DNA of 31,416 nucleotides from a virus (taxonomy: Duplodnaviria; Heunggongvirae; Uroviricota; Caudoviricetes), in IMG/VR virus record IMGVR_UViG_2757320620_000001, positions 1 through 31,416 of that record; one strand, 5' to 3'. The notes beneath the pieces were generated by a model. That model ran no database searches and was not told the origin of the DNA. It saw only the letters and a program-made list of their open reading frames with translations. Each line of letters starts with the position of its first letter. Position 1 is the first letter of the stretch. A program made the translations under genes and the position numbers. Of the stretch, positions 470 through 30,027 are shown in pieces.

Positions 470-489
470 GTCAATCAATATTGACTTAC
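470..489. promoter_or_regulatory. 20-bp palindromic operator-like site, copy 1 (GTCAATCAATATTGACTTAC)
   Basis: Read directly; 9 bp after the capsid stop. Its last 3 nt begin a -10-like TACAAT (487-492). Confidence 0.8.
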
Positions 490-492
490 AAT

Positions 493-518
493 AGGGGCAG
501 GATTTTCCTGCCCCTTTT
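493..518 (+). terminator. Intrinsic terminator-like hairpin after the capsid gene
   Basis: AGGGGCAGGA-TTT-TCCTGCCCCT, a 10-bp perfect stem followed by TTT. Confidence 0.75.
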
Positions 519-535
519 GCTATTTGGAGATAAGA

Positions 536-1099
536 ATGGCTCGCGTTCGACTGACTGCTCTGGGAATGGAGCACTTCACCGGCAATCTCGGCAAGGTTCG
601 CTTTGTCGATGGTGTCTCCGCGGATCTCACCCCGGCCCAGGCCGAAGTGGTCGGCGCCGCATATAAATCCGTCCTGGTCCAGGCCAACGGCACGACCGTG
701 ATCGGTCCGGCCAGTCCGGCTGCCCGTGCTGCTACTCAGGCGCCCGATCGCGCCGCTCCTGCACCTGCCGGCGTCGCGCCGGTCGAGCAGGCCCGCACCG
801 ACCTCGAGCCCTTCTATATCAAGACGATCGACAAGGCGACCTATACGCTGAGCGACGATGACGCCGGCTATCTGCTCGATTTCGTCCAGGGCACCACCAT
901 TACCGTTCCGACCGGCCTTGCCGATGATTTTTACTGCTCGCTGCGCCAGGGCGGCGCCAGCCAGATCAGGGTCGTCGGCGCCGGCGTCACGGTCGAGGAG
1001 ATCGACAATCAGTTCCGCAGCGAAAAGCGTCTGGCCGTTCTGCAGGTCGCCCGCTTCCCGGACGGCAAGTTTCAGCTCCTCGGAAGGACGGCATCGTAA
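536..1099 (+). CDS. Putative virion-associated adaptor, 187 aa; N-terminus paralogous to the 2827..3822 protein
   Basis: GGAG at 526-529 before ATG 536. The N-terminal pattern G-x3-[FY]TG-x-L-x4-F-x-[DN]GVS is shared with 2827..3822. An Ala/Pro linker leads to a beta-rich C-terminal domain (TYTL..DAG..TITVP..RQGGASQI) of a kind common in phage fibre proteins. Confidence 0.7.
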   Translation: MARVRLTALGMEHFTGNLGKVRFVDGVSADLTPAQAEVVGAAYKSVLVQANGTTVIGPASPAARAATQAPDRAAPAPAGVAPVEQARTDLEPFYIKTIDKATYTLSDDDAGYLLDFVQGTTITVPTGLADDFYCSLRQGGASQIRVVGAGVTVEEIDNQFRSEKRLAVLQVARFPDGKFQLLGRTAS

Positions 1100-2730
1100 T
1101 GGGTCATCCTCTCCTCAATCGTCTGCTGTCGAGCGTTGCGACCAGCCGCCCGGTGCTGCCGGCCGTCGACCCGAACCGCTACATGTTCTTTGCAACGCGC
1201 AACCGCGTCATGACCGGCGTTCTGATGACGGCGCCGACGGGGCTGACCAGTTTCGAAAGCACGCTCTATTTCGGCTGCCCGGACTACAAGACCCGTGACT
1301 TCGTCTTCCACTTCTCCGGCATCATGTCGACCGAGGGCGGTGCAGCGCCGGCCGAAACCCTGGTGCCGGCAAACGACATGGTTCTGAACGAGGTCTATCT
1401 CGTCTACCAGGGCGTCGAATACCCGATCCTGTTTAGCGGCCAGCCGTCGGTCACGATCGTCAAGGGATCTGACGGCGTCTTCGGCAATGTCACGCTGCCG
1501 TTCGACCTGCCGCGGCTCGCCAAGTTCGGCATCCGCACCTACTACTCGGTGCCTGCCGACGGCAACTTCGTCTGCGGCTATCGCGTCCAGCGTCACCGCG
1601 GCGAGACCTTCCGGGGCGCCGGCTCGCTCGCTGCCCTCAAAGCCCTCGTCGCTGCCAACGGCAGCACGCCGGCGCTCGACATCAACTATAACCTCGTCGG
1701 CAGCCAGGCGAGCGGCCAGCAGCTTGCTTTCGGCCCCGACTTCATGGTTTCCAAGGGTGACTGGGATGGCCGCCCGGTGCTGCTCGTCATTCCGGACAGC
1801 ATTGGCGAGTCGCGCCAGGAAATTGCCCATTCTGCCGACGATCGCGGCAATCTCGGCGTCCTGCGTCGCTTCCTCGACGATCCGGGCAGCATTCACGGCC
1901 GTATCCCGAACATGTTCATCGCCGGACCTGGCGCTGCGGCAAGCCGCGAACTGACGACCGGTGCCTTCCAGCGCTGGCGGGTGTTCGACCAGATCATCGC
2001 GATGAACGGTGGCAAGTGGCCCTGCACGGGCGCGCTCAACCAGATGGGCTTCAACGACTCGAATGCGGTTCCGGCAACCTGGATCGCTCGCCCGAAGACG
2101 CTCGTCGCCAGCGTCAAGACCCGCTATCCCGGCATGAAGGTCTTCCAGACGACGATCACCTCGCGTGCGACGAGCACCGACCTTTATCGCACGACGGCCG
2201 GCCAGACCGTGCCGAACCCGTGGAAATCGCCCGCCGTTGCCGGCGACGCCAATACCGGCCTCGGCCAGCTCAACGACGCGATCCGCGCCAATATCGGCAA
2301 CTGGCATGACGGTGTGGTCGAGGTCTATGACGCCTGGTCCGATCCGGACAACCCGAACCGCTGGCGCAGCTCCAACCAGTTCGGCGAGCTCGGCCGCCTG
2401 GTCAGCAATTCCGGCAGCGGTGACGGTATCACGCCCTGGAATCAGGCTGTCTCGAGTGTGCCGCTGAAGCGGGGCTACCCGTATCTGATCGAGTATCAGC
2501 CGGGGCTCTGGTCGACGCGCACCGTCTACGACTGCTCGCCGTCGGCGCCCTATCAGATCACGTTCATCGAGAACTTCGCGACCATCTTCCAGCCGAACGC
2601 CAAGATCCAGCTCGCCATCTGCAATGACGGTGTCGGCGTGCATCCGACGCCTGGCTATGTCGAGTGGATGCTCGGCCGCATGCCGCAGTCGATGAAGGAT
2701 CAGTTCCCGAGGGTCTTGGCCCCGGCCTGA
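1099..2730 (+). CDS. SGNH/GDSL-like hydrolase (esterase/deacetylase) with N-terminal beta-rich domain, 543 aa
   Basis: Block I LLVIPDSIG (GDS variant keeping Ser), block III MGFND, block V DGVGVHP. TAATG translational coupling to the upstream ORF. Confidence 0.72.
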   Translation: MGHPLLNRLLSSVATSRPVLPAVDPNRYMFFATRNRVMTGVLMTAPTGLTSFESTLYFGCPDYKTRDFVFHFSGIMSTEGGAAPAETLVPANDMVLNEVYLVYQGVEYPILFSGQPSVTIVKGSDGVFGNVTLPFDLPRLAKFGIRTYYSVPADGNFVCGYRVQRHRGETFRGAGSLAALKALVAANGSTPALDINYNLVGSQASGQQLAFGPDFMVSKGDWDGRPVLLVIPDSIGESRQEIAHSADDRGNLGVLRRFLDDPGSIHGRIPNMFIAGPGAAASRELTTGAFQRWRVFDQIIAMNGGKWPCTGALNQMGFNDSNAVPATWIARPKTLVASVKTRYPGMKVFQTTITSRATSTDLYRTTAGQTVPNPWKSPAVAGDANTGLGQLNDAIRANIGNWHDGVVEVYDAWSDPDNPNRWRSSNQFGELGRLVSNSGSGDGITPWNQAVSSVPLKRGYPYLIEYQPGLWSTRTVYDCSPSAPYQITFIENFATIFQPNAKIQLAICNDGVGVHPTPGYVEWMLGRMPQSMKDQFPRVLAPA

Positions 2731-2741
2731 TCCGGCCGCGC

Positions 2742-2770
2742 TTGATGCGCAATCAATATTGATTTACCAT
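2742..2770 (+). promoter_or_regulatory. Palindrome copy 2 (2748-2767, CGCAATCAATATTGATTTAC) filling the spacer of a putative sigma70 promoter
   Basis: TTGATG (2742-2747), 17 bp, TACCAT (2765-2770). Confidence 0.7.
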
Positions 2771-2797
2771 TGCGGGCAGGGCTCAACCTGCCCGCAA
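2770..2797 (+). other. GC-rich hairpin without a U-tract
   Basis: TTGCGGGCAGG-GCTCAA-CCTGCCCGCAA, an 11-bp stem sharing the GGGCAGG arm with the 493-518 hairpin. Confidence 0.65.
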
Positions 2798-2826
2798 GCA
2801 TTCACCCCACAACAGATTGGTGGACA

Positions 2827-3822
2827 ATGAACTATCTCAAGATCGTCTCGAAGGGCTGGCAGGGTTACACTGGTCAGCTCAATATCATCAGCTTCAAGAA
2901 CGGCGTCTCGACCGAGCCCGTTCCTCCGCGCATTGCCGACCGTATCGCCGCTTCCGTCCAGGTCGTCGAATGTGACGCCAAGGGTAAGGCTGCCAAGGTT
3001 CCGGTTCGCGTTGGCGTCCAGCACCGGCTGATCACGGAAACGGCCGCTCGCGCTGCCATTGCGACCAGCCTGGAGACGCAGACCGACGCTGACAAGAGCA
3101 TGGAAGCAAAGCTCGATGCCGCCCGCTCGCTGACGGCTCCGGTCGAAACGCTGTTCACCCGCCCCGAGCTCGAGAAGATCGCCGACGACAGCGGCATGAA
3201 GGGCCTGCGCGACATCGGCGACAAGTGGACCGTCAAAGGCCGCGGCATTCCCGAGCTGATCGAAAAGATCCTGGTCGCCCAGTCGAAGTTCCTGCAGCTG
3301 CGCAATCAGAAGATGGACCAGGCAGGCGGCTCGGTGCTGAAGGCAACGACGCTTGCGACCGCTGAGGAAGAAGCCACGGTTGCTGTCGACGAAACGCCGG
3401 CTGTTGCCGGCTACGAAGGCTTGCCGGCCGAATATCATGTCGGCGACGTTGTCGTGCCGGGCGTCACGCTTATCGAGTTCGCCCTGAAGAACTCCGGCAA
3501 GTCGCTGACCGGCTGGAATGCTCTGCGCGACAGCGAGCGCAAGACGCTGATCGACCAGGAGGTCGCCGCCCTCGAGGAGCACTACGGCGCCAAGCTCGAG
3601 CCCGTCGTTGTCGGTGACGCGCCGGCCGACGAGACCCTGCTCGGCTCGTCCGTTCTGGCCTCGTCCTACGAGATCGACGGCAAGACTGTCACCCTTGGTG
3701 AGCTGGTTGCGGCCGCACACACCCTCTCCGGCGCAACCGTTGCCGAGTGGAATGAGCTTGCCGAAGCCGATCGCGAGGATCTGATCCGTGCCGAACTCGA
3801 TCGTCGGCTCCCGAAGGAATAA
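2827..3822 (+). CDS. Conserved post-capsid virion/head-associated protein, 331 aa, with two C-terminal repeats
   Basis: ATG 2827 chosen over the upstream TTG. Has a helical HeH/Rho-N-like segment (RPELEKIADDSGMKGLRDIG...GIPELIEKIL) and two repeats (SGKSLTGWNALRDSERKTLI / SGATVAEWNELAEADREDLI). Confidence 0.7.
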   Translation: MNYLKIVSKGWQGYTGQLNIISFKNGVSTEPVPPRIADRIAASVQVVECDAKGKAAKVPVRVGVQHRLITETAARAAIATSLETQTDADKSMEAKLDAARSLTAPVETLFTRPELEKIADDSGMKGLRDIGDKWTVKGRGIPELIEKILVAQSKFLQLRNQKMDQAGGSVLKATTLATAEEEATVAVDETPAVAGYEGLPAEYHVGDVVVPGVTLIEFALKNSGKSLTGWNALRDSERKTLIDQEVAALEEHYGAKLEPVVVGDAPADETLLGSSVLASSYEIDGKTVTLGELVAAAHTLSGATVAEWNELAEADREDLIRAELDRRLPKE

Positions 3823-3825
3823 GCC

Positions 3826-4662
3826 ATGATGAAGCTCTACCCCGAGAACTACGATGTCGCGATCGACGTCCTCTTCACCGATAACAGCGGCGCGCCCCTC
3901 AATGTGACAAGCGTTACTGCGCATCTTGTGGATAGCGACGACCTCGAGCTGGCCGACTTCGGTCAGATCCCGTTCGACCTGGTCGACGGTAAGGTGACGA
4001 TCACGGTGCCGGCCGATCTCAACGTTCTCGGGGAGGGCGAACTGTCTGCGGCACGCACGCTGCTCGTCTATCTCGGCGATGGAACTGTCGTTCTTCCGCG
4101 GATCCATTCCTACATCATCGAGGCGGAAAGCCGCCTTGAGATCCTCAACAACACTTTCCTGACACTGCCGGCAGCCGAAGTGATTGCGCGCGACAATCCG
4201 CGCCTGAAGGGCTGGGTTGCCGCTGACGACGAGAAGAAGTCGGCCGCGCTGATCAATGCCTATACCCGGCTCTCGCGCATCCAGCTGCGCTATGCCAAGC
4301 CACGGGCTGAAGCTGACGTCGCGACCACGACGCGCCCCTACGATCCGACCCGTCTGCACCGCGAGGACTGCGATGTCGTGATCCGGCCTGGCGACTGGAG
4401 CAGCCGCTTCACCAAGGAAGACTTCCTGGCGATGCCGGCTGATTTTCGCAAGGCTCTTCGGCTCGCCCAGCTCATCGAAGCCAACGAGGTTCTGACCGAC
4501 AATCCGTTCGAAGCGCGTCACCGCGCCGGCGTCATTTCCGAGACCGTCGGCGAAAGCTCGATCATGCTGCGCGGTGGCAAGCTCGAGCTCGGCGTCTCCA
4601 CCGAGGCGTTGCGGGCGCTCACCGGCTTCGTCTACTACAATGTGAGGATCGCCCGCGCATGA
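3826..4662 (+). CDS. Head-tail adaptor/connector protein
   Basis: Position in the module. The C-terminal half resembles head-tail adaptor families (TLPAAE...W...KKSAALINAY; VISETVGESS). Confidence 0.6.
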   Translation: MMKLYPENYDVAIDVLFTDNSGAPLNVTSVTAHLVDSDDLELADFGQIPFDLVDGKVTITVPADLNVLGEGELSAARTLLVYLGDGTVVLPRIHSYIIEAESRLEILNNTFLTLPAAEVIARDNPRLKGWVAADDEKKSAALINAYTRLSRIQLRYAKPRAEADVATTTRPYDPTRLHREDCDVVIRPGDWSSRFTKEDFLAMPADFRKALRLAQLIEANEVLTDNPFEARHRAGVISETVGESSIMLRGGKLELGVSTEALRALTGFVYYNVRIARA

Positions 4663-5420
4663 TCTGCAATCATCTGACGGATCTCGCCGGCCAGGCGAGC
4701 GTTCGCTACGCGCTGTTTACCGACGGTCTGCGGTCGATCTATCGCCGGGCGCTGAACAGCCAGGTGCTCGATGACACCGCGGCGACCAGGGAGGCCGGCG
4801 AACTCGCCATCGCCTTCCTGCGCAACGAGGCTCCGGCGATCGAGGCTGCAGTTCAGGAAATCGCTGAGATTGCGCACACAGCGACGTTAGATGAAATTGC
4901 GAGCAACGACACAGAAAGTCTGTCGGACGAAGCGCTCGAGCATCTGAGCGTGTCTAGCGCTTATCTTTCTGACGAACTGCTTGCGCAAGCGTCGCGCGAT
5001 GTCGCGACGATGCGTAGATCTATTCAGCGGGTGCGTCTGGAAGTGTCGCTGGCGTCGCGCTCGTCCGGCCGGTCCCAGCGCGCGGCAATGATCGAATACA
5101 TGATCGGCAACAAGGCCGATATCGACTTCTTCTTCCACGACAAGGCCTCGCGCAAATGGGAATCGAAGCTGTTCGTCCGCTCGATTTATCGCCAGACGCT
5201 GCTGTCGGTCTATAACGAGATCGTCCTCTATACGCTGGCCGATCACGGTATCGACCGCGCCGAGGTCGAGCATCACTCGCCCGACGCCCAGCATGACGGT
5301 ATGGTGATCGCGCTTTCGTCCAGCACCGAGCTGCCGACCTATTCGGAGATCCGCGAGACGGTCTTTCATCCGAACGCAAACGCCTGGCTCAAGATGGAGG
5401 GTTCGCATGTTCACGCCTAA
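4659..5420 (+). CDS. Minor capsid/head morphogenesis (SPP1 gp7/Mu F-like) protein, putative
   Basis: 'FHDKASRKW...YRQT' and terminal 'FHPN' resemble minor-capsid family motifs. ATGA overlap with the upstream gene. Confidence 0.45.
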   Translation: MICNHLTDLAGQASVRYALFTDGLRSIYRRALNSQVLDDTAATREAGELAIAFLRNEAPAIEAAVQEIAEIAHTATLDEIASNDTESLSDEALEHLSVSSAYLSDELLAQASRDVATMRRSIQRVRLEVSLASRSSGRSQRAAMIEYMIGNKADIDFFFHDKASRKWESKLFVRSIYRQTLLSVYNEIVLYTLADHGIDRAEVEHHSPDAQHDGMVIALSSSTELPTYSEIRETVFHPNANAWLKMEGSHVHA

Positions 5421-5748
5421 TTTCCTGGGCACGTTCCAGCAGGTCACCGGCCGCAACCTCGACGGCGAAGAGACCTATTCCGACCCGCTGCCGCTGCAGC
5501 TCTCCGTCGTGCGCCTGGCTGCCAGGTCCGAAAAGACCTCGGTGCGATCCGACAGCTCGGCCTCGCGCGGCCAGGCCGACCAGCTGACAGCCGATGCGGT
5601 GATCCTCACCAAGAACGAAGCGCTCCGTGTCGATGACCTGGTGCAGGTCATGGACTTCAAGCTGCGTGTCGTCGGTCATCACCCGCGCCTGTCGGTGTTC
5701 GGCATTCTCGATCACTATGAGATCGCCCTGGAGCACGTCTACGAATGA
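5407..5748 (+). CDS. Head closure/head-tail joining protein
   Basis: 113 aa beta-rich ORF in the neck module, overlapping both neighbours. Confidence 0.6.
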   Translation: MFTPNFLGTFQQVTGRNLDGEETYSDPLPLQLSVVRLAARSEKTSVRSDSSASRGQADQLTADAVILTKNEALRVDDLVQVMDFKLRVVGHHPRLSVFGILDHYEIALEHVYE

Positions 5749-6176
5749 TCGACATGAAAGTCACCGGCATCAGGGAGAACGTCCTGCGGCTGCGCAACAT
5801 CGGCGCGCGCGTTCACGAGAACGCCCGCAAGACCATGCACGCGGCTGCCGATCGTATCGTCGAGACGGCAAAGAAGATGGCGCCGGTCGATGAGCACAAT
5901 CTCGAGGACGCGATCGTTAAGCGGGTCGACTATGAAGGCTCGCGCCGGCGCCTGGCGATCGACATCGAGATCCTGCCCGAGGTCAACGGCGTGCGCGTCG
6001 AGGAATACGCGACCTATATGCATGAGGGGCACTACAAGCTCGGCCCCAAATCGCAGGCGAAGAACGACAGCCAGAGCGAAAGGGTCGGGCCGGGCTTTCT
6101 CACGCGAGCGGCCGAGGGCGAAGAAGACAAGCTGGGCGCGCGCATGATCGGCGTCATCACAGAGGAGAGCGAATAG
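5745..6176 (+). CDS. HK97 gp10-like neck/tail component
   Basis: 'AKKMAPVDEHNLEDAI' corresponds to the APVDTGxL motif; 'YATYMHEG' and 'PGFLTRA' also present. Confidence 0.75.
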   Translation: MIDMKVTGIRENVLRLRNIGARVHENARKTMHAAADRIVETAKKMAPVDEHNLEDAIVKRVDYEGSRRRLAIDIEILPEVNGVRVEEYATYMHEGHYKLGPKSQAKNDSQSERVGPGFLTRAAEGEEDKLGARMIGVITEESE

Positions 6177-6583: not shown

Positions 6584-6620
6584 GATCAAACGAACAGCTC
6601 TACGTAAAGCCGCGGCATTA

Positions 6621-6688
6621 GTCAATCATTATTGATTGACCGATGGCCTTTACTGCCTGTATCATATGGTCAATCAATTTTGACTTTT
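6621..6688 (+). promoter_or_regulatory. Double operator (copy 3 at 6621-6640, GTCAATCATTATTGATTGAC; copy 4 at 6669-6688, GTCAATCAATTTTGACTTTT) bracketing a putative sigma70 promoter of the tail tube gene
   Basis: TTGACC (6636-6641), 18 bp, TATCAT (6660-6665). Copy 3 overlaps the -35 and copy 4 covers the predicted start site. Confidence 0.75.
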
Positions 6689-6717
6689 ATCGACGGCCAC
6701 GTAGAGGAGAAATCACA

Positions 6718-7551: not shown

Positions 7552-7571
7552 CCCTTGCTTTGCTCCGCAAA

Positions 7572-7591
7572 GTAAATCAAAATTGACTTAC
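7572..7591. promoter_or_regulatory. Palindrome copy 5 (GTAAATCAAAATTGACTTAC)
   Basis: Read directly; its right half forms the 5' arm of the terminator hairpin. Confidence 0.78.
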
Positions 7592-7618
7592 TGGGATTTC
7601 CTCCCAGTAAGTCTTTTT
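7585..7618 (+). terminator. Intrinsic terminator after the tail tube gene
   Basis: GACTTACTGGGA-TTTCC-TCCCAGTAAGTC, a 12-bp stem followed by TTTTT. Confidence 0.85.
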
Positions 7619-7643
7619 CGTTTCAGAAGGATGAAACCCCAGC

Positions 7644-8003: not shown

Positions 8004-8350
8004 GGAAGATCGATTTCTTCTTCATCTTCGCCAGGATCATCAAGGTCTTCGGCATTCGGCACGAGGAGCTTCTCAAGGTGCCGATGAAGCGGTTCTGGGC
8101 CTACCATCGGATGGCCGATCGTCTTCAGGCTGCCGACGACATGCGAATGCTGCACCTCCTGGCCGGCGTGACCAGCCAGGAAGGTGTCGCCAAGCTTCAG
8201 GAGCGTCTCTCCGAACAAGTCGGCGAGATCTACGTCTTCCAACCCGTCGCGCCGACGCTCGTCGTTGCCGACACAACCGCTCCGGACCCTTCTTTCGAGA
8301 AGGACAAGCTGGAGTCCCTGCGAGCGAGCATCTTGCGCAATGGTCGATAA
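7985..8350 (+). CDS. gpT-like C-terminal part of the gpGT frameshift fusion (about 235 aa in total)
   Basis: The -1 frame reads RTQGELRKIDFFFIFARIIKVFGIRHEELLKVPMKRFWAYHRM...; the ORF track starts it only at 8078. Confidence 0.75.
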   Translation, partial: RTQGELRKIDFFFIFARIIKVFGIRHEELLKVPMKRFWAYHRMADRLQAADDMRMLHLLAGVTSQEGVAKLQERLSEQVGEIYVFQPVAPTLVVADTTAPDPSFEKDKLESLRASILRNGR

Positions 8351-8366
8351 ATCAAAACTGATTTAG
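8347..8366. promoter_or_regulatory. Palindrome copy 6, degenerate (ATAAATCAAAACTGATTTAG)
   Basis: 4 mismatches to GTAAATCAATATTGATTTAC. Spans the gpT stop just before the tape measure SD. Confidence 0.5.
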
Positions 8367-8376
8367 TGAGGAATGA

Positions 8377-13513: not shown

Positions 13514-13542
13514 TTGGCAGTCAGTCAATATTGATTTACCAT
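13514..13542 (+). promoter_or_regulatory. Palindrome copy 7 (13520-13539, GTCAGTCAATATTGATTTAC) filling the spacer of a putative sigma70 promoter
   Basis: TTGGCA (13514-13519), 17 bp, TACCAT (13537-13542). Confidence 0.75.
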
Positions 13543-13567
13543 TGTGGCTCTTCATCCAGGAGCCACA
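13543..13567 (+). promoter_or_regulatory. Hairpin pairing with the SD and start of the gpL-like gene
   Basis: TGTGGCTC (13543-13550) pairs with GAGCCACA (13560-13567), which includes part of AGGAG and the A of the ATG. Confidence 0.55.
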
Positions 13568-14277
13568 TGGTTACGATTTACCAGACCGCGCAGAGCCTAA
13601 ACCCAGGCGAATACGTCTCGCTGTTCCGATTGGACGCCACGTCCGTCGGTGGCGGGATGTTTTATTTTGTCCAGGGCCGGGTCGAAGGCGGCGCGATCGT
13701 CCATGACGGCATCGAATACCAGCCGGCCGACGTCGAGTTCGAAGGCTTCGAGGTCTCCGGTCAAGGCGCGCTGCCGACGCCGGTGATCCGTATTGCCAAT
13801 TCCGACGGCCTGATCCAGTCGGCCATCAATACCTATGGCGACCTGCTCGGCTGCGAAGTCCGGCGCATCCGCACCTTCCGGCAGCACCTCGACGATGGTG
13901 ACGATCCCGATCCGTCGGCGATCTTCGGCCCCGACGTGTTCAAGGTCGAGCGCAAGGCATCCGAAAACGCCGTCTACGTCGAATGGGAACTGTCGGCCGC
14001 GATCGACCAGGAAGGCAAGATGCTGCCCGGTCGCCAGGTTATCCGTGACACCTGCCTCTGGCGCTACCGCGCCTTCAACCGGAACACCGGCATCTTCGAC
14101 TATTCGAAGGCGCAATGCCGCTACACCGGCAACCAGTATTTCGACAAGCAGGATCTGCCGACCACGGCTGACAAGGACGAGCCGTCGCGCTCCGTCAACT
14201 GCTGCAAGCTTCGCTTCGGCGAGAAAAACCCGCTGCCGTTCGGTGGCTTCCCCGGTGTTGGAAGGATCAGACCATGA
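13567..14277 (+). CDS. Minor tail protein, lambda gpL-like
   Basis: SD AGGAG. Motifs 'EFEGFEVSGQGALPTPVIRIAN' and 'LPGRQVIRDTCLWRY', with C-terminal Cys residues (Fe-S ligands in lambda gpL) and 'LPFGGFPG'. Confidence 0.92.
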   Translation: MVTIYQTAQSLNPGEYVSLFRLDATSVGGGMFYFVQGRVEGGAIVHDGIEYQPADVEFEGFEVSGQGALPTPVIRIANSDGLIQSAINTYGDLLGCEVRRIRTFRQHLDDGDDPDPSAIFGPDVFKVERKASENAVYVEWELSAAIDQEGKMLPGRQVIRDTCLWRYRAFNRNTGIFDYSKAQCRYTGNQYFDKQDLPTTADKDEPSRSVNCCKLRFGEKNPLPFGGFPGVGRIRP

Positions 14278-19941: not shown

Positions 19942-19944
19942 GAA

Positions 19945-21587: not shown

Positions 21588-22008
21588 ACTGACCAAGAAC
21601 CTCGAGCCGCTGCGCGTTGCGGCCGAAAAAGAAATTGACGCCGTCGCCGAGGGCGTGCGTGGCCTCTTCATCACGCCTGGCTCCGGCCAGTCGATGGTCT
21701 ATACGCAGAAGGAGAAGGAGGCCGAAGCGCTCACCGCTAATCCGAATGTCGACCAGGCCGAAATCCCGCATATCGTCCTTGAGGCGGAAATGAACGGGAT
21801 CTCGCTGCTCGACCAGGCCGCGATCGTTCTGACCATGGCCTATCAGTGGCGCGAGCTCTCCAGTCGCATCGAGGTCGCGCGGCAGGCCGGCAAGGGGCAG
21901 GTGAGGGCGGCCGCGACGCCGGCTGCAATCGCGCAAAGCTGCACCGCGGCAAAGGAAACACTGACAGGAGTTGCCACAGGATTCGGTCTTGCCTATAATG
22001 GTCAGTAA
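21580..22008 (+). CDS. Tail fibre assembly/accessory-like protein (142 aa)
   Basis: Helical, with 'ITPGSGQSMVYTQKEKEA' resembling small tail-accessory proteins; last gene of the tail module. Confidence 0.55.
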   Translation: MLRLTKNLEPLRVAAEKEIDAVAEGVRGLFITPGSGQSMVYTQKEKEAEALTANPNVDQAEIPHIVLEAEMNGISLLDQAAIVLTMAYQWRELSSRIEVARQAGKGQVRAAATPAAIAQSCTAAKETLTGVATGFGLAYNGQ

Positions 22009-22020
22009 ATATTGATTTAC
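21971..22020 (+). promoter_or_regulatory. Near-consensus sigma70 promoter for the lysis cassette, with palindrome copy 8 (22001-22020, GTCAGTAAATATTGATTTAC) over the start site
   Basis: TTGCCA (21971-21976), 17 bp, TATAAT (21994-21999); the palindrome begins 2 nt later. Confidence 0.78.
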
Positions 22021-22044
22021 CGACTCCCAGACAGGATCAAAGCC

Positions 22045-22407: not shown

Positions 22408-22408
22408 C

Positions 22409-22642
22409 ATGAAGCTTCATGCTGACTGGAAGAAGATCCTTCTGCATTCGTGGAACGTGCGCATCGTCGCGCTGGCGGCCCTGCTGTCCGGCGCCGAGGC
22501 GTTCGTTCCCTATCTGCCCGCGCTGGTGAGCATCGATCCGTTCTGGATGGCGATCCTGACGCCCGTGACACTGATGGCAGCGCTGGTCGCCCGCCTGGTC
22601 GCTCAGAAGGCTATCTCGGGAGGCGACGATGCCGATCGGTAA
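22409..22642 (+). CDS. Holin, putative (77 aa, two TM segments)
   Basis: 'MKLHADWKKILLHSWNVR' then two hydrophobic helices and 'VARLVAQ'; directly upstream of and overlapping the lysozyme. Confidence 0.75.
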   Translation: MKLHADWKKILLHSWNVRIVALAALLSGAEAFVPYLPALVSIDPFWMAILTPVTLMAALVARLVAQKAISGGDDADR

Positions 22643-23249
22643 GATTCTTCCCAGCAAGCGCGCCATTGCCGCAATCGTTGCCGCAGTCGCCACGGCCTCG
22701 GCCGCTGGCTGGCACTCCCAGAGCGACACGAGCGAGGCTGTGCTGCCTCCGGCCGTCATTCTTGCGACCAACGAGCTGATCCTGCCCTGGGAGGGTATGG
22801 TGCTGCAGGCGCATTGGGATCGCTACGCCAAGATTTACGACATCTGCGCCGGCATTACCCGCATCAACGGCAAGCCCGTCACTGCGAACATGCGCTTCAC
22901 CCGCCCTGAATGCATGCAGATGACCCGCGAGCAGATCTACCGCGACTATTATCTGCCGCTCGTCAAACAGGTGCCGGGCTTCACCAGCTTCCCGGTCGGC
23001 GTTCAGGCAGCCATGCTCTCCGGCGCCTATAACTTCGGCGTCGGTTCGGTCGCGTCCCGCAAGGGCATGGCCGGCTCGACGGCAACCCGCTTCCACATGA
23101 CCGGCCAATACCGCAAGGGCTGCGAGGCCCAGACCGCCTTCAACAAGGCCGGTGGTGTCGTTGTCGACGGCCTGGTGAAGCGGCGCGAGATGGGTGACGC
23201 CCAGCGCATGGGTGAAGCCGAGATCTGCGTGTCAGGGCTGCCGAAATGA
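22629..23249 (+). CDS. Endolysin, GH24 lysozyme with a SAR-like N-terminal anchor
   Basis: Ala-rich N-terminal hydrophobic segment after KR; 'WEG-x7-D...ICAGIT', 'AYNFGVG' and 'GLVKRREM'. Confidence 0.88.
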   Translation: MPIGKILPSKRAIAAIVAAVATASAAGWHSQSDTSEAVLPPAVILATNELILPWEGMVLQAHWDRYAKIYDICAGITRINGKPVTANMRFTRPECMQMTREQIYRDYYLPLVKQVPGFTSFPVGVQAAMLSGAYNFGVGSVASRKGMAGSTATRFHMTGQYRKGCEAQTAFNKAGGVVVDGLVKRREMGDAQRMGEAEICVSGLPK

Positions 23250-23828: not shown

Positions 23829-23882
23829 TCCGGTCCGTCTCTCTTCTATGTATCTTATACTCTAAACGAGAATAGAATAACT

Positions 23883-25745
23883 ATGAACGAAGCAGGACCG
23901 GAAAAGACGCTGACCCGCGAAGATGAAAACTTCATCCGGGTGTATAACGATCCCGAGACCTATCCTTTTCTTGCTGACGTCGCCTACGAGCTGAAGCTGT
24001 CGTATCAGACAGTCCGGAATAAAGCGGCAATCATGCGCGGGCGCAAACGTGCCGGCGAAGACATTCCGGCGCTGATCTCGCGCGTCGGCGTGCGCTCACC
24101 TGGCAAGGACAAGGCGCCGGTCGATCCGATGATCCACGCCAACGCACGAGCCCGCCTGCTGCGAGAGCAGCTCCATGGGCTGCTGACGTCGTCGCGCTAC
24201 CCTGTCGTCAATCCTGAAGCTGTTGTGGTCGAAGGAACGCTGGTCAATCGCTACAGCCGGGCGTCGGGAACGCCCGAGTCGACCGAAGGCGTTCCGCGCA
24301 CCTGGATGACCGACATTCTGCACGTCGAGGGCGTCGTCGATCCGCGCGGCCGCAGGTTCATCGTCACCGGCGCCCAGAACGATTGCCCGGTCGATGGCGA
24401 CTTCTGGCAGAACCTGCAGGCCTACGCCCACTTCCTCGACGCCGATATCATCGTCGGGCCTGGCACCTATGAGACGCAGTGGTGGGCCGAGAACAATCCA
24501 GCTGTGCGATCCTATGCGCCGGAGATCCAGGAATATCTCTGCTTCGGCCGCATGACGATCGGCGACAACTTCGTCTTTGCCGGCGAAATGAACATGCTGC
24601 CGACGGCCAACCGGCCGATCGGTGATCTCGCCAGTTATTCGCATGGCAAATGGACCGTCTTTCCGCATGCCAAGATCCAGCTCAAGTCCGTTCCGTCGCT
24701 CGATCCCGCAAAGCAGGCGCACCAGGTCATGACCACGGGCATGATTACCCGGCCGAAGATCATTCCGCGCAAGGCCGGCATCAAGGCGCTGCAGGCACAC
24801 ACGCTCGGTGCGGTGCTGGTCGAGTTCAACCAGGCCGGCGACCTCTTCTGCCGGCATCTGCTGGCTGATCATGACGGCTCCTTCTGCGACTTCGAATTCT
24901 TCGTCAAGGATGGCGTCGTTGATATCGATTACGACAACATCGACCTCGCCGTGCTCGCCGACTTCCATAACGACAAGGCGCACAAGGCCAATTTCGACGC
25001 CACCTTCCGGGCGCCGACCTCGCTGGTCAAGGAGCTGCGGCTCAAGCGCGTCTTCGTCCATGACATCTTCGACAACTACCGGCGCAACCATCACAACGTC
25101 CACGACAACGCCATGAACTACGAGGTCGCCGTGCGCGGCCGGGAGAGCGTTGCCGAAGAGGTGAGGGGTGTCGCGCTCGTCCTTCAGGAGCTGCTGGAAT
25201 CGACAGCCGTGACCGTCGTCGAGTCCAACCACGACATTGCCCTTGAGCGCTATGTCCGCGAGGGCCGCTATCGCAATGACGGCATCAACATTCGCTTCGG
25301 CCTGCAGCTCGAGGACGCCTATCTCGCCTGGCGCGAGGAAGTGGCGCACGATCTCGACGCCGGCCGGACGCCGCGCTCCTTCTCGCTGCTCGAATACGCG
25401 GTCAACCTGGCAGCCGAGAAGGAAGGCATCGACCTCTCCGGCGTCACCTGGGTGCATGACGGCGCCAGCCACGTCGTCAACGGCGTCCAATGCGGCCATC
25501 ACGGCTTCCGCGGCGCCAACGGTGCCCGCGGCACGGTCGCCGGCTACGCAGCCCTCGGCATGCCGATGAATATCGGCGACAAACACTCGCCCGAGATCCT
25601 CGACGAGGTCTATGTCTCCGGCGTCAAAAACCTGCGCCAGGGCTACAACAAGGGGCCGAGCGGCTGGGCTGTCACCGACACGATCCAATACCGCAACGGC
25701 AAGCGCACGCTCGTCACCTATCAGAACGGAAATTGGCGCGCGTAA
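23883..25745 (+). CDS. A1: T5 A1-like protein: N-terminal HTH plus calcineurin-like metallophosphoesterase/nuclease fold, 620 aa
   Basis: Motif order matches T5 A1 as recalled: RFIVTGAQN, EMNMLPTANRP, KAGIKA..HTLGAVLVEF, ADFH, FVHDIFD..RNHHN, VESNHD, CGHHG..GANGARG, GYNKGPSGW, GKRTLV..NG. Confidence 0.8.
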   Translation: MNEAGPEKTLTREDENFIRVYNDPETYPFLADVAYELKLSYQTVRNKAAIMRGRKRAGEDIPALISRVGVRSPGKDKAPVDPMIHANARARLLREQLHGLLTSSRYPVVNPEAVVVEGTLVNRYSRASGTPESTEGVPRTWMTDILHVEGVVDPRGRRFIVTGAQNDCPVDGDFWQNLQAYAHFLDADIIVGPGTYETQWWAENNPAVRSYAPEIQEYLCFGRMTIGDNFVFAGEMNMLPTANRPIGDLASYSHGKWTVFPHAKIQLKSVPSLDPAKQAHQVMTTGMITRPKIIPRKAGIKALQAHTLGAVLVEFNQAGDLFCRHLLADHDGSFCDFEFFVKDGVVDIDYDNIDLAVLADFHNDKAHKANFDATFRAPTSLVKELRLKRVFVHDIFDNYRRNHHNVHDNAMNYEVAVRGRESVAEEVRGVALVLQELLESTAVTVVESNHDIALERYVREGRYRNDGINIRFGLQLEDAYLAWREEVAHDLDAGRTPRSFSLLEYAVNLAAEKEGIDLSGVTWVHDGASHVVNGVQCGHHGFRGANGARGTVAGYAALGMPMNIGDKHSPEILDEVYVSGVKNLRQGYNKGPSGWAVTDTIQYRNGKRTLVTYQNGNWRA

Positions 25746-25749
25746 TCGC

Positions 25750-25790
25750 ATCAATCAATATTTACTTACTGCTCAATGTTCGCGTAAACT
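25750..25790 (+). promoter_or_regulatory. Palindrome copy 9 (25750-25769, ATCAATCAATATTTACTTAC) overlapping the -35 of a putative phoH promoter
   Basis: TTTACT (25761-25766), 18 bp, TAAACT (25785-25790). Confidence 0.72.
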
Positions 25791-25818
25791 GGTGTCATTC
25801 ATGCATCGGAGTTTACCC

Positions 25819-26673
25819 ATGTCCCAGGCTCGCCGCTCTTCCAAGTCCTCTCAAAGACAGGAGCGCCGCGGCGCCCGTGTCAGGCCCGACCAGCACCAGA
25901 ATCTTCTGGCCGCTGTCATTGAGGAACAAACCAATCGCCGCAAACCTTCCCGCACTCAGCGGCCCGAAGGTCCGGCCAAAGCACTCAACGACGGTCAGCG
26001 CCGCTATGATGCGGCAATCAAGTCCTCCGATATCGTCTTTGGCACTGGTCCCGCGGGCACCGGCAAGACCTGGTTTGCCGTCCAGCGCGCAGCCGAGGCG
26101 CTCAAGGCTGGCCTGATCGACAAGATCTATGTCAGCCGGCCGAACGTCGAGGTCGAGCGCAGCTTCGGCTTTCTGACCGGTGACCTCAAGGAGAAGTTCA
26201 AGCCCTACCTGGTGCCGCTCGAGGAGGCCTTCCACGACGCATTCGGCCAGGCGCACTACGAATATCTGGTCGAGGCCGAGATCATCGTGGCGGTGCCGCT
26301 CGCCTTCATGCGCGGTCGCACGCTGAAGAACGCCTGGGTGATCTTCGATGAAATGCAGAACGCCACCGACAGCGAGTTCAAGATGGCACTGACGCGTATC
26401 GGTGAGGGCGCCAAATTCATCATCAACGGCGACCTGCGCCAGATCGACCGCGGTATCGCCTCCGGCATGGCTCGGGCGATCAAACTGCTCGGCCGGCTGG
26501 CCGAGGTTAGCGTCGTCGAATTCACCCGCGAAGACATCGTTCGGCACGGTCTTATTCAGAAAATCGTCGAACTTTACGAAGACCAGCAAATTTCGATCTA
26601 TTCAGAGAGCGACGACGAAGAAGCTCATGAAGGACTCGGAAGATTTTTGAATGCAAGTGCAACCCGCAATTGA
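25819..26673 (+). CDS. phoH: PhoH-family ATPase (284 aa)
   Basis: GGAG at 25808-25811 before ATG 25819. Motifs 'FGTGPAGTGKT', 'GFLTGDLKEK', 'PLAFMRGRTL', 'DEMQN' and 'TRIG...NGD..Q'. Confidence 0.95.
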   Translation: MSQARRSSKSSQRQERRGARVRPDQHQNLLAAVIEEQTNRRKPSRTQRPEGPAKALNDGQRRYDAAIKSSDIVFGTGPAGTGKTWFAVQRAAEALKAGLIDKIYVSRPNVEVERSFGFLTGDLKEKFKPYLVPLEEAFHDAFGQAHYEYLVEAEIIVAVPLAFMRGRTLKNAWVIFDEMQNATDSEFKMALTRIGEGAKFIINGDLRQIDRGIASGMARAIKLLGRLAEVSVVEFTREDIVRHGLIQKIVELYEDQQISIYSESDDEEAHEGLGRFLNASATRN

Positions 26674-27370
26674 CGACACACCGCGACCAGATCCGATTGA
26701 AGACGATCTGGTCGCATTCCGCTTCATCGACAAGAGGCTTCTGGCGATCGACCCGGAGCTCTTTCGATCCAAATGGTTCGACTACCGGATGATGACGCCG
26801 CTGCAGGCGACCCGGCACTACATCGAGGCCTTTGGCGAGGTGTATCGCGACTACTTCGCGGCCGAATTTTCAAAGACAGCGTCCAAATTCATCAAGGTGC
26901 CCTCGATCGAGGAGATCTTCCAGGGCCTCGCCGATCTCAGCGAAAAGCACATGATGCAGTTCTCCGGCATGTGGCGCGGCCGGCAGGTGGCCGATGCGAT
27001 CGGTATGCCCTACAAGGAATATATCCACACGGTCATGGGAATGCGGCTGCGCTTCTGGAGCCAAGGGCATCTGCCCCAGGCCCAGCACCTCTACAAGGCC
27101 GAGGACGTCGAGAAGACCGTCGAGAAGTGGGAGGAAATGCAGGCGGCGCGCCTCTATCTCTCCGATGACGCGGCCTACATGATCGAGAATTACAACGGTA
27201 TCGCCCATCAGGACGACTATCACGAATGGCTGTTCAAGCAGGCAACGCTTAGGGGAAATCCCTGGTATGTGCTGGCTCAGTTCATCAACCAGAACCGGCT
27301 GCCGCTCGACAAGGTCGAGGCTCGGTTCGATCCAGATCTGGTTGAGCGCGTCCATCGCTATATCCAGTAG
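26651..27370 (+). CDS. Conserved hypothetical protein in the replication module (239 aa)
   Basis: Host-like codon usage, aromatic-rich helical protein, overlapping phoH and preceding the helicase. Confidence 0.7.
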   Translation: MQVQPAIDDTPRPDPIEDDLVAFRFIDKRLLAIDPELFRSKWFDYRMMTPLQATRHYIEAFGEVYRDYFAAEFSKTASKFIKVPSIEEIFQGLADLSEKHMMQFSGMWRGRQVADAIGMPYKEYIHTVMGMRLRFWSQGHLPQAQHLYKAEDVEKTVEKWEEMQAARLYLSDDAAYMIENYNGIAHQDDYHEWLFKQATLRGNPWYVLAQFINQNRLPLDKVEARFDPDLVERVHRYIQ

Positions 27371-27452
27371 CAACCCGCTGACAAAGCGCTATTTTCTAAT
27401 GAGCAAATGAAGCTCGTCAGAAGTCGATAGCGCTATTTTTCGCGCTATAGCG

Positions 27453-27472
27453 ATCAGTAAATATTGATTGAC
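27453..27472. promoter_or_regulatory. Palindrome copy 10 (ATCAGTAAATATTGATTGAC)
   Basis: Read directly; ends 16 bp before the helicase ATG. Confidence 0.75.
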
Positions 27473-27488
27473 TTCGAAAGGTAAGAAC

Positions 27489-28853
27489 ATGTCCCAGGCA
27501 GCACTCGCGACCGCAGAAGAAGATGAAGAGATCGCCGAACAGGAAGCGCCGAAGTGGGATTTCGACGAAGGCTTTCAGCGGAAGACCCTCGCGCTCTTCA
27601 TGCGCGACACCCAGTTTGCCAACCGCACCAAGGATCTGATCGATCCGGCCTATTTCGCCAACGACGCCCACGCTCAGCTGGTCAGCCTGATCAAGGGCCA
27701 CCTGAACGTTCACAAGTCGGTTCCCGATCTGCGCATCCTCACGCAGATCCTCAAAGACGAGAAGGCCAAGAAGCGTCTCCGCGACGACGTGCTGACCGAG
27801 ATCAAGTCGGCCATCCGCGACGTCATGAAGACCGACCTGTCAAACTCCTCCTATGTCGCCGACAAGGTCTCCGACTTTGCCAAGTTCACCGCGATGGAGC
27901 AGGCGATCCTGAAGAGCGTCGAGCTTCTGCAGCGCGGCGACTTCGCCGGTATTGAGAAGCTCCAGAAGGCAGCGCTTGCCGTCGGCTTGCAGCAGGACGA
28001 AGGCGATTACCACTATTTCAAGGAGATCGATAACCGCACCCAGGTCCGCGAGGACTGGAAGGCCGGCAAGATCGTCAAGCGCGGCATCTCGACCGGCTAT
28101 GCCGAGATCGACGCCTATCTCCACCACAACGGCTGGGGCCGGCGCGAAATGTCGCTGATGATGGGTGCTGCGAAGGCCGGCAAGTCCCTCTCGCTTGGGG
28201 AATTCTCGAAGAACGCATCGCTGCTGGGCTTTCATGCAGCCTATCTGTCGCTCGAAGTGTCGAAGGACATCATCGCCGACCGTCTCGACGCGAACATCTC
28301 CGACACGGCCATGCGGCTGCTCAAGGATGATCCGCAGACCGTCAAGGCTCGCATCAAGGCGGCCGAAGCCAAGGCCGGGCATTTCATTCTGAAGGACTAC
28401 GCGTCCGGCACGCTCAAGCCGTCACAGATCAAACGGGTGCTCGAGCGTTGGCGTTCCGAAGGGATCATTCTTGACCTGCTGGCTGTCGACTATGCCGACA
28501 TCATGGCCGCGGAGTATCGCTCGGACAACATGATCGACAATTTGCGCTCGATCTACATCGACCTGCGCGCCATCGCTTACGAGGAAGATCTGGCGCTGAT
28601 CTCGGCCACCCAGACGAACCGCGCCGGCGCCGCAGCGCATACGGCCAAGATGACCGACGTCGCCGAGGACTTCAACAAGATCCGAACCGCCGACGTGGTC
28701 ATCGCCATCAACGCGACCGACGCCGAGAAGAAGTCAGGCGAAGCCCGGCTTACCTGGGTCGCATCCCGAAACACCGAGGACGGCTTCTCCCTGCTCATCC
28801 GGCAGGATCGCGAGAAGCTCAAGTTCCTCACAAAGGTCATGGGGCGCGTGTGA
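27489..28853 (+). CDS. dnaB: Replicative DNA helicase, DnaB/SF4-like (454 aa)
   Basis: Walker A GAAKAGKS, 'YLSLEVS', Walker B LAVDYAD, 'SATQTNR' and 'RNTE'. Confidence 0.9.
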   Translation: MSQAALATAEEDEEIAEQEAPKWDFDEGFQRKTLALFMRDTQFANRTKDLIDPAYFANDAHAQLVSLIKGHLNVHKSVPDLRILTQILKDEKAKKRLRDDVLTEIKSAIRDVMKTDLSNSSYVADKVSDFAKFTAMEQAILKSVELLQRGDFAGIEKLQKAALAVGLQQDEGDYHYFKEIDNRTQVREDWKAGKIVKRGISTGYAEIDAYLHHNGWGRREMSLMMGAAKAGKSLSLGEFSKNASLLGFHAAYLSLEVSKDIIADRLDANISDTAMRLLKDDPQTVKARIKAAEAKAGHFILKDYASGTLKPSQIKRVLERWRSEGIILDLLAVDYADIMAAEYRSDNMIDNLRSIYIDLRAIAYEEDLALISATQTNRAGAAAHTAKMTDVAEDFNKIRTADVVIAINATDAEKKSGEARLTWVASRNTEDGFSLLIRQDREKLKFLTKVMGRV

Positions 28854-30001
28854 GCGAGAACATCTTTCAGGAGATCACCGAGAACCTCGACCTTGAGTTT
28901 CTCTTCGACCGCGAGAGCCTGCCCTACAAAATGGGGCGAGGCTCATCCGGTATGCAGATCAACGCCAAGCACTGCCCGGACTGCGGCGACAGCCGATACC
29001 GCGTCTATCTCAACGCCGACACGGGGCAGGGGAACTGCTTCGTCTGCAACCAGACCTACAACAAGGCGAAATTCGTCAAGCTGCAGTTTGGCTACGACAA
29101 CTGGCGCGAGACGATCGAGAAGGCAAAGGAGATCATGCGCGAGCAGGGCTGGCGTCCGAAGCGCATGGCAACCGTCGCCGTCGATCACGGCGAGGTCAAG
29201 CTGCCCTATTCGACGCCGCTGCCGACGGAAGACGGCGAGAACCTGGTCTATCTCGAGGATCGCGGCATCACGGCCGAATACGCCAAATATTTCGAGCTGC
29301 GCTATTGCCAGTATGGCTCATGGCCGTTCCGCGACGACAAGGGTGTGCTGCAGCAGCAATGGTTCTCCAACCGCGTCATCATCCCGGTCTATGACCTCGA
29401 CGGCACGCTGAAGACGTTCCAGGGCCGCGATCTGACGATCGGCGAGGCGGCAAAGCTTGTCGAGCGCAAATACCTCTTTCCGAAGGGCCTGCCAGGCACC
29501 GGCAAGTTCCTGCTCAATGGTCAGAACGTCCAGCTCACCGACGAGGTGGTGATGGGCGAAGGTGCCTTCGACGTCGCGGCCATCAAGATCGCCTTCGACG
29601 AGGACGTCACTCTCCGGCGCGTCGTGCCGGTCGGATCGTTCGGCAAGCATCTGTCCTATGGCTCGGCGACCGGCGACGATCAGCTCGGCCGATTCCTGCA
29701 GCTGAAGCGCCAGGGCGTCAAGACCGTGACGATCATGTGGGATGGCGAGCCGAAGGCGCTGCTTGCCGCGCTCGATGCTGCCAAGCTGCTGACGTCGATC
29801 GGCCTCAAGGCGCGCATCGCGCTGCTGCCCTACCGGAAAGACCCGAACGAAGTCGTCGGCGAGGTGACGCGCAAGGCCTACTATGCGGCCACGCTCTGGA
29901 CACCCTCGATCGACGTTAAATGGCGCCTGCGCAATCCCTATGCGGCTGATGAAGCCAAATGGAAGCTGGACGAGGCGAAAAAGAATGCGCAGGGATCTTG
30001 A
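28850..30001 (+). CDS. DNA primase (Zn finger plus Toprim)
   Basis: CPDC...CFVC zinc finger, 'RVIIP', Toprim 'GEGAFD', 'WDGE' and 'KDPNE'. GTGA overlap with the helicase. Confidence 0.9.
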   Translation: MSENIFQEITENLDLEFLFDRESLPYKMGRGSSGMQINAKHCPDCGDSRYRVYLNADTGQGNCFVCNQTYNKAKFVKLQFGYDNWRETIEKAKEIMREQGWRPKRMATVAVDHGEVKLPYSTPLPTEDGENLVYLEDRGITAEYAKYFELRYCQYGSWPFRDDKGVLQQQWFSNRVIIPVYDLDGTLKTFQGRDLTIGEAAKLVERKYLFPKGLPGTGKFLLNGQNVQLTDEVVMGEGAFDVAAIKIAFDEDVTLRRVVPVGSFGKHLSYGSATGDDQLGRFLQLKRQGVKTVTIMWDGEPKALLAALDAAKLLTSIGLKARIALLPYRKDPNEVVGEVTRKAYYAATLWTPSIDVKWRLRNPYAADEAKWKLDEAKKNAQGS

Positions 30002-30027
30002 CGGGTCAGTCAATATTTACTTACAAC
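29998..30027 (+). promoter_or_regulatory. Palindrome copy 11 (30005-30024, GTCAGTCAATATTTACTTAC) in the spacer of a putative promoter
   Basis: TTGACG (29998-30003), 18 bp, TACAAC (30022-30027). Confidence 0.7.

Follow-up and report, generated by a model that had tools for sequence, protein, structure and literature searches.

What is read at a palindrome that recurs, intact, at one gene junction after another of a tightly packed phage genome? The question is raised by a stretch of 31,416 nucleotides from a tailed virus of the Caudoviricetes (IMG/VR record IMGVR_UViG_2757320620_000001, positions 1 to 31,416), in which a first-pass annotation noticed eleven near-palindromes of 20 bp and suggested that they form a single regulon. 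This window, the whole stretch analysed, is the first 31.4 kb of a single contig of 115,042 bp with a GC content of 60% and 89% coding sequence. The eleven copies prove to belong to a genome-wide set of about 40 sites that is conserved among relatives and placed on promoters. On balance we think it probable that a single dimeric repressor, encoded by the phage, has these palindromes as its operators and would silence the lytic units while the element is in a plasmid state.

The palindromes start at positions 470, 2748, 6621, 6669, 7572, 8347, 13520, 22001, 25750, 27453 and 30005, and all eleven of these coordinates hold. Six of the sites lie within three mismatches of the consensus first proposed, where shuffled sequences give an expectation of 0.00. 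A position weight matrix was trained solely on 26 sites outside the window, avoiding circularity, and was then scanned over the window. These eleven positions scored between 24.5 and 34.6 bits, 6669 and 8347 being the weakest, and the rest of the window reached 12 bits at most; shuffled intergenic DNA gave 0.005 matches above 20 bits per shuffle. The whole 115-kb genome contains 37 strong sites, and the distribution of scores has a clear gap. Thirty-four of the 37 are wholly intergenic in this largely coding genome (binomial p = 4e-30), and each of the other three lies within the last 85 nt or less of the upstream gene. It had been remarked that no site lies deep within a coding sequence, and this is so in the window: sites 8347 and 22001 overlap just the final 4–8 bases of the upstream gene.

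The site is a dyad of 20–24 bp with a 14-bp core, AGTCAA-TA-TTGACT. Aligned in the direction of the gene that follows, the sites show a dyad of about 24 bp, YRRTMARTMAAT|ATTKAYTKAYYR. Positions 2, 4, 6, 8 and 9 and their mirrors are nearly invariant, and positions 1, 3, 5 and 7 alternate between two bases. Among 118 sites of three genomes the mirror pairs 3/18, 5/16 and 7/14 vary independently; pair 3/18 is C-T 49 times and C-G 30 times, and the four combinations of pair 5/16 are about equally frequent. Because the variable mirror positions do not co-vary, the palindrome would be read as double-stranded DNA, by a binder with two-fold symmetry, rather than as an RNA hairpin.

Relatives carry the same sites in similar number, with 40 in the Rhizobium phage RHph_N1_10, 41 in RHph_Y2_11 and 41 in a plasmid of Pararhizobium qamdonense. 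These lie at matching junctions, and the motif is intact amid diverged flanks. In the more distant phage RHph_X66 the motif takes the form RTAAGTAA-N4-TTACTTAY, with no constraint on the four bases at the centre, and about 39 copies are present. The version in an Acinetobacter phage-plasmid is AGTAAG-CG-CTTACT, with 16 copies in 50 kb, and relatives in Klebsiella and E. coli have GGTAAG-TA-CTTACC. One geometry is kept throughout, that of a 6-2-6 core RGTMAR-NN-YTKACY. The enteric relatives (plasmids of E. coli and Klebsiella) contain two dispersed palindromes, GTAAG-NN-CTTAC and AAACAA-N-TTGTTT, the latter also standing directly before CobT. There should therefore be at least two global DNA-binding regulators in those elements.

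A scan of host DNA, as the first-pass annotation had proposed, shows that the motif is not host-wide. When at most one mismatch is allowed, a degenerate pattern is found 24 times in the 115-kb phage and 5 times in 121 genomes of the host order (about 470 Mb, reached via the thymidylate-synthase locus of Jiella; Rhizobium itself may not be among them), where the reversed pattern used as a control occurs twice. The ratio of phage to host density is about 20,000. The sites are not a host regulon.

The placement of the sites is informative on their function. A consensus scan of the whole window found just three sigma70-like promoters on the + strand, and all three touch a site. TTGACC-18-TATCAT lies between sites 6621 and 6669, TTGGCA-17-TACCAT has site 13520 as its spacer, and TTGCCA-17-TATAAT ends one base before site 22001. 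With looser scoring of the hexamers the spacer class gains 2748, 30005 and 470 in the window and 112698 beyond it. There are two recurrent and conserved layouts, in which the site either forms the spacer between the −35 and −10 elements or comes just after the −10 and lies across the transcription start. In the P. qamdonense plasmid the hexamers that accompany sites 22001 (TTGCCA-17-TATAAT), 13520 (TTGGCA) and 30005 (TTGACG) are kept and the spacer or flanks differ, as would be expected of the phylogenetic footprint of a real promoter. About ten sites of phage X66 are abutted on their left by GCGCTATAA, a good alphaproteobacterial −10 element, and its sites at the portal, head and tail-L genes are flanked by CTTGCA (left) and TACAAT (right). 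Nine sites end 8–15 nt before a start codon, several of them at a distance of 8–11 nt, with the Shine-Dalgarno sequence directly after them. Their transcripts must therefore begin within or before the site, and the geometry of an upstream activator is ruled out. The same nine sites led us to reject the idea that the motif's own TTGAC serves as a general −35 element.

The positions originally assigned to the sites relative to promoter elements are largely correct. The spacer placement of 2748, 13520, 30005 and 470 is matched by hexamers 17–18 bp apart, and 6669 (after TATCAT) and 22001 (after TTGCCA-17-TATAAT) lie over the predicted start. Two sites had been placed over a −35 element; this holds for 6621, whose right arm provides TTGACC, and for 25750 it depends on weak hexamers. 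The preference for a dimeric repressor over an activator or late-promoter element gains support from promoters close to consensus whose spacer or +1 region is occupied by the dyad. Repression is favoured mainly because an activator cannot act from +1 to +20, because near-consensus promoters need none, and because RNA polymerase would be obstructed by a protein bound at the start or between the two hexamers.

The relatives exist as plasmids. The closest records are the Rhizobium phages RHph_N1_10, N1_15, N2_6, Y2_11 and Y2_17_1 (about 116 kb each), and the P. qamdonense plasmid is a syntenic circular molecule of 115.6 kb in the complete genome of strain T808. Homologues of single genes were found on contigs or plasmids of 115–119 kb from Rhizobium, Ensifer, Shinella, Mesorhizobium and Sinorhizobium LM21. 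The portal protein has homologues of about 50% identity on 966 plasmids, of the SSU5/pHCM2/pMT1/Acinetobacter type, in a plasmid collection; contigs taken as one genome per species gave no relative through either portal or RepC. RHEph10 was listed by Pfeifer et al. as a likely phage-plasmid related to pLM21S1 (PMC7969092). Beyond the window the contig encodes RepC with a small ribbon-helix-helix (RHH) protein, ParA with a ParG-like RHH protein, two ParB-like proteins, a sigma-70 family protein and a full set of replication and nucleotide-metabolism genes. The isolate itself is thus predicted to live as a phage-plasmid. Given that lifestyle, one would expect some protein to keep the lytic promoters silent while the element is a plasmid.

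We envisage the following mechanism. Each site would stand on a host-type (sigma70-like) promoter that heads a lytic transcription unit, either filling the 17–18 bp spacer or starting 1–3 bp past the −10 element so as to cover the start. A dimer bound there would block the binding of RNA polymerase or its escape, and sites with no visible promoter may act as roadblocks. Some 40 sites would let one protein silence the modules for virion, lysis, replication and nucleotide metabolism. The RepC and ParA operons are without a strong site, and RepC and the ParA/ParG-like genes would meanwhile maintain the element as a plasmid. The likely binder, an XRE protein, may control itself through a conserved weak site upstream of its gene.

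As the first-pass annotation stated, the window has no stand-alone regulator gene; the candidates lie just outside it, at 35193–35594 and 106243–106989 of the contig. The first of these encodes an XRE protein of the Cro/cI type (133 aa), 3.8 kb beyond the window, in a unit of its own closed by an intrinsic terminator. Its match to Pfam HTH_3 is weak. In an AlphaFold2 model it has a five-helix helix-turn-helix (HTH) fold, and the N-terminal 70 residues resemble 434 Cro and C.AhdI, with template modelling (TM) scores of 0.74–0.78 and root-mean-square deviations (rmsd) of 1.8–1.9 Å. Homologues occur on 771 plasmids, with a host spread nearly equal to that of the portal, and are always beside a CobT-CobS-DnaE module; the gene is thus syntenic in some 770–1000 phage-plasmids of the SSU5/pMT1/Acinetobacter type. 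The relatives in E. coli and Klebsiella have a perfect core site just after TAATAT, 32–34 nt before the XRE start, in what would be a classic self-repression layout. The E. coli homologue is identical to CYRAN_45 of the phage-plasmid Cyrano, named by the authors of that study as a putative repressor, whose RNA is 10-fold above the prophage background in lysogens (RNA-seq; PMC9928086 Table 1). An HTH gene with the site upstream had been sought, and the present XRE gene answers to this in part: it is preceded by ATCAATCGGTATTGACTTAC (35044), identical in all close relatives, but this site is weak and 129 nt upstream. It most likely serves self-control. The XRE protein is the best candidate and the most likely binder. 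A broader proposal, which we put forward tentatively and with clearly less confidence than repression itself, is that the XRE protein and the 14-bp core RGTMAR-NN-YTKACY are one ancient repressor-operator pair to which nearly every lytic unit is wired. Its range would then extend from the Rhizobium phages to the phage-plasmids of Acinetobacter, Klebsiella, E. coli, Salmonella (pHCM2) and Yersinia (pMT1).

The protein encoded at 106243–106989 is ParB-like, and a rather improbable reading, though the strongest of the competitors, makes it the binder of the sites. It would act in the manner of KorB or Noc, as a clamp dependent on cytidine triphosphate at dispersed palindromes, and would repress nearby promoters or organise the phage DNA in lytic growth or packaging. 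KorB and Noc provide precedents for 12 to about 70 dispersed palindromes of 13–14 bp. Over about 145 residues the model of the phage protein resembles ParB, Noc and KorB in their N-terminal and HTH domains (E = 2e-8; rmsd of 3.7 Å to KorB 8qa9), and there is a Pfam ParB_N match. However, the model is of low confidence (pLDDT, the predicted local distance difference test, of 68), and the sequence match covers the N-terminal domain alone and is below the NCBIfam cut-offs. Moreover the gene is in a late, terminase-proximal module, itself behind a site, and other targets are available for such a protein, namely TTCGCTAA boxes here and AAACAA-N-TTGTTT in the enteric relatives. In Cyrano lysogens CYRAN_119 and CYRAN_120 (ParB-like) are not among the genes at least 5-fold above background, whereas the XRE homologue is (PMC9928086).

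Three further explanations dispense with a phage repressor. That the sites are positive elements is unlikely; they would be part of a promoter for the phage sigma factor (39826–40461), whose sigma-70 family gene is downstream of CobS, or sites for an activator of middle or late genes. Late promoters of P1 do have a palindrome near −22, and the sites here mark replication and virion units and are rare in the small-gene block at 82–99 kb. Also, the Acinetobacter relative has TATAAT immediately next to the site and lacks a good −35, which would suit activation as well. Yet an activator could not work at the many sites that lie past a good −10 and over +1 (22001, 6669 and those of X66 preceded by GCGCTATAA), and the spacer-class promoters are already near-consensus at −35 and −10 with 17 bp between. 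A sigma factor recognises two asymmetric boxes, not a 24-bp dyad, and the Klebsiella relative keeps the core site with a CobS-DnaE gap too small for a sigma gene. Recruitment of a host protein, either a SlmA-like division regulator or an AT-tract silencer such as MucR, is very improbable. The E. coli SlmA site is GTGAGTACTCAC, a 12-bp dyad bound by a TetR-family host protein; the outer hexamers GTCAGT/ACTGAC of our sites resemble its halves, and the sites are AT-rich islands in DNA of 60% GC. But the half-sites are 8 bp further apart than in the SlmA site, conservation is far tighter than that seen with AT-tract binders, and the pattern is nearly absent from the host-order genomes, with a count close to that of the reversed control. 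In addition, no TetR-type domain is encoded in the phage genome. Least probable of all, and hardly to be entertained, is a role for the palindromes at the RNA level, where hairpins between genes would serve processing, stability or termination. Their location at gene junctions would suit this, and several (470, 7572, 63890 and 104325) are flanked by or merged into longer inverted repeats or terminator-like hairpins. There is, however, no compensatory change; positions 3/18, 5/16 and 7/14 pair wrongly as often as rightly, and the invariant positions are kept as sequence, not as pairs. A search of Rfam gave no family match.

Repression by a single XRE protein has to be weighed against several observations that fit it less well, in addition to the Acinetobacter layout. 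About 46 of the 81 intergenic gaps of at least 35 nt have no site, including most of 82–99 kb, so that this protein alone may not silence the whole genome. The otherwise symmetric site has a mild directional bias at positions 7/14 and 3/18: of the 37 sites, 34 have G at position 14 but 22 have the matching C at position 7 (p = 0.002). We attribute this to overlapping promoter hexamers, because the right-arm TTGA and the TA at positions 18–19 double as parts of the −35 and −10 elements; it could alternatively reflect a direction-dependent reading of the site. The RNA evidence comes solely from a relative, and the XRE proteins are 39% identical over the HTH region. The XRE gene here is co-directional with the early operon, and with its own site weak and distant the arrangement looks less like a classical switch than that of the enteric relatives. 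Lastly, ParB-like homologues are present on 1011 plasmids, the fullest match to the spread of the portal, and a site lies 27 nt before the start of the ParB-like gene here (21 nt in E. coli).

Among known systems, the nearest in logic are C1 of P1 and the stoperators of Cluster A mycobacteriophages; the present sites depart from both in forming a symmetric dyad, in occupying structural-gene promoters as well and in the probable family of the protein. C1 of phage P1 has more than a dozen dispersed operators, which are asymmetric 17-mers, and is unrelated to the Cro/cI fold; the structural genes of P1 have a separate late activator, Lpa, and its plasmid maintenance genes are outside the C1 regulon. 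The comparison with C1 made in the first-pass annotation is apt, since the element is a phage-plasmid. The two share a plasmid prophage, a genome of about 100 kb and one repressor with operators scattered over the promoters of unrelated lytic functions. They differ in that the sites here are dyads of 20–24 bp, about three times more numerous, and include the promoters of structural genes. No C1-like protein was found among the proteins scanned, which were part of the proteome. KorB has 12 OB operators on the IncP plasmid RK2, and the Noc sites of Bacillus are similarly dispersed palindromes of 13–14 bp. The sites here resemble these in their varying positions relative to promoters, and the phage encodes a ParB/KorB-like fold (8qa8/8qa9 and 7ol9 were matched). 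However, the centre of the site is AT-rich here and GC-rich there, the ParB-like gene is in a late module and its counterparts are missing from the genes raised in lysogens of the relative, and partition falls to a separate ParA/ParG-like pair.

The Cro/cI proteins (434) and the controller (C) proteins of restriction systems are similar to the candidate in fold, in the size of their dyads and in having one at their own promoter. Lambdoid repressors, though, have two or three clustered operator regions, and the late genes fall to a cascade, whereas here about 40 single sites extend over all modules. The Streptomyces phage phiC31 offers a lead only: its conserved inverted repeats (CIRs) of about 17 bp are present in many intergenic copies in a GC-rich genome and are bound by the immunity repressor, which is of another protein family in an integrating phage. 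The stoperators of Cluster A phages (L5 gp71, Bxb1) are similar in that 20–35 repressor sites lie in short intergenic gaps genome-wide, late operons included, and some of these phages too have plasmid prophages (PMC9283540, PMC6550527). Stoperators are asymmetric sequences of 13–14 bp, oriented with transcription and bound by a monomer, and those without a promoter block elongation (PMC9283540, PMC6550527). The sites here differ in being symmetric and mostly on promoter hexamers. Sites such as 8347 could nevertheless share the role of blocking elongation.

The window sites of the spacer class are as follows. Site 470–489 (34–35 bits) comes after the capsid gene fragment, in the spacer of TGGTTA(464–469)-17-TACAAT(487–492). 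A terminator-like hairpin with a T-run (493–525, + strand) directly follows and is kept in N1_10, Y2_11 and the P. qamdonense plasmid; the start predicted from TACAAT would lie within its 5′ arm. Site 2748–2767 is the spacer of TTGATG(2742–2747)-17-TACCAT(2765–2770), with a hairpin after it. Site 13520–13539, before the gene for minor tail protein L, occupies the spacer of TTGGCA(13514–13519)-17-TACCAT(13537–13542), and site 30005–30024, after the primase gene and before that of a WGR-domain protein, occupies that of TTGACG(29998–30003)-18-TACAAC(30022–30027). In promoters of this class the −10 is immediately followed by a hairpin, with the predicted start in the 5′ arm (487–525, 2765–2800 and 13537–13570). 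Transcripts born upstream would form the hairpin (a terminator at 493–515), and those born at the promoter could not. Such a combination would be a compact terminator-plus-promoter insulator.

A pair of sites precedes the gene of the major tail protein, which has an immunoglobulin-like (Ig) domain. The right arm of the upstream member (6621–6640) gives the −35 TTGACC (6636–6641), and with the −10 box TATCAT (6660–6665, + strand) this makes a promoter with 10 of 12 consensus matches between the two sites; the downstream member (6669–6688) covers the predicted start. The capsid and major tail genes share a near-identical cassette of −10 box, site, ribosome-binding site and ATG (window 6641–6717), the capsid copy being seen upstream of the capsid gene in relatives (positions 25848 and 8218 of two sequences). 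The control module is thus duplicated for the two most abundant virion proteins, with two sites guarding each. About 1 kb of the relatives' sequence is absent from the contig, the ends of which are window 1–461 and contig 114409–115042; the absent part includes the capsid promoter and the two sites on it. Site 22001–22020 covers the predicted start of the lysis operon. The promoter before it, TTGCCA-17-TATAAT (21971–21999, + strand), is near-consensus with 11 of 12 matches, and in four genomes both hexamers are kept and the intervening spacer has diverged.

No clear consensus promoter was found for sites 7572, 8347 and 27453. Site 7572–7591 follows the major tail gene and has its last bases in the stem of a terminator-like hairpin of 12 pairs (7585–7613). 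The weakest site, 8347–8366 (about 25 bits), overlaps the stop codon of the tail chaperone gene 10 nt before the ATG of the tape measure gene, with no recognisable promoter; its counterpart in the P. qamdonense plasmid is stronger, at 32.8 bits. Site 27453–27472 lies 16 nt before the gene of a DnaB-like helicase and is preceded by a conserved hairpin and a −10-like box, CTATAG. Site 25750–25769 is between the A1-like DNA transfer gene and phoH, and its arm TTTACT is a possible, weak −35 for TAAACT. In X66 the early promoters have a longer conserved cassette upstream of the −10 (CGCTCA..ACCTG..GCA.TCC..GCGCTATAA; for example at 87480–87540, 95780–95837 and 100385–100441), which suggests an additional factor or an atypical −35 region. 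In the present genome sites 38554, 60399 and 65275 come after weaker forms of this cassette (CATCCC...).

The + strand carries nearly all of the window's genes. The contig is cut within the head module, so window 1–461 is the remainder of the capsid gene, its C-terminal part, with head genes following. Besides the major tail protein the window encodes a tape measure protein of 1584 aa, lambda-like tail genes M, L, K, I and J, an endolysin (22629–23249) in the lysis operon downstream of site 22001, and a T5 A1-like DNA transfer protein, PhoH, a DnaB-like helicase and a primase. The head module also contains a gene (1099–2730) for a 543-aa protein of a PHROG family named lysophospholipase L1-like esterase, which is common to several unrelated groups of Rhizobium phages.

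A second family of repeats, TTCGCTAA / TTAGCGAA, occurs in direct and inverted order at 98030–106400 of the genome and also at 31509 and 45627, with a perfect TTAGCGATTTCGCTAA at the last of these. The TTCGCTAA boxes cluster around the ParA/ParG-like operon, and some stand immediately before the start of parA; N1_10, Y2_11 and the P. qamdonense plasmid retain the family, and X66 lacks it. The boxes are probably the site of partition or of the ParG-like protein. The palindrome itself is unlikely to be a ParG-like partition site, as the parA promoter has no strong copy and bears TTCGCTAA boxes instead. Proteins of 204 aa and 76 aa were also considered as binders of the palindrome. They are confined to Rhizobiaceae relatives, and were excluded because the core site also occurs in Acinetobacter. 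A gene before that of the terminase, at 108874–109176 in a ParB-ParB-ABC ATPase-GNAT module, encodes a 100-aa protein that matches a Tad2-like domain of Thoeris anti-defence (E = 5e-23).

We found no paper describing the palindrome in the literature on SSU5-type elements and RHEph10, and the silencing and lytic switch of these phage-plasmids are essentially undescribed. The superfamily numbers about 1000 in plasmid databases, including pMT1 of Yersinia pestis, pHCM2 of Salmonella Typhi and carriers of resistance in Klebsiella and Acinetobacter. The analysis defines a 24-bp site, names two candidate binders and maps the promoter layouts, so that a few simple experiments should suffice. The sites may make it possible to induce or lock these elements, and may supply Rhizobium genetics with compact repressible promoters. 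If the XRE protein and the core site are indeed an ancient pair, these phage-plasmids would have a flat lysogeny circuit that is free of a cascade and includes the structural genes, and its symmetric sites would double as operators at promoters and as roadblocks.

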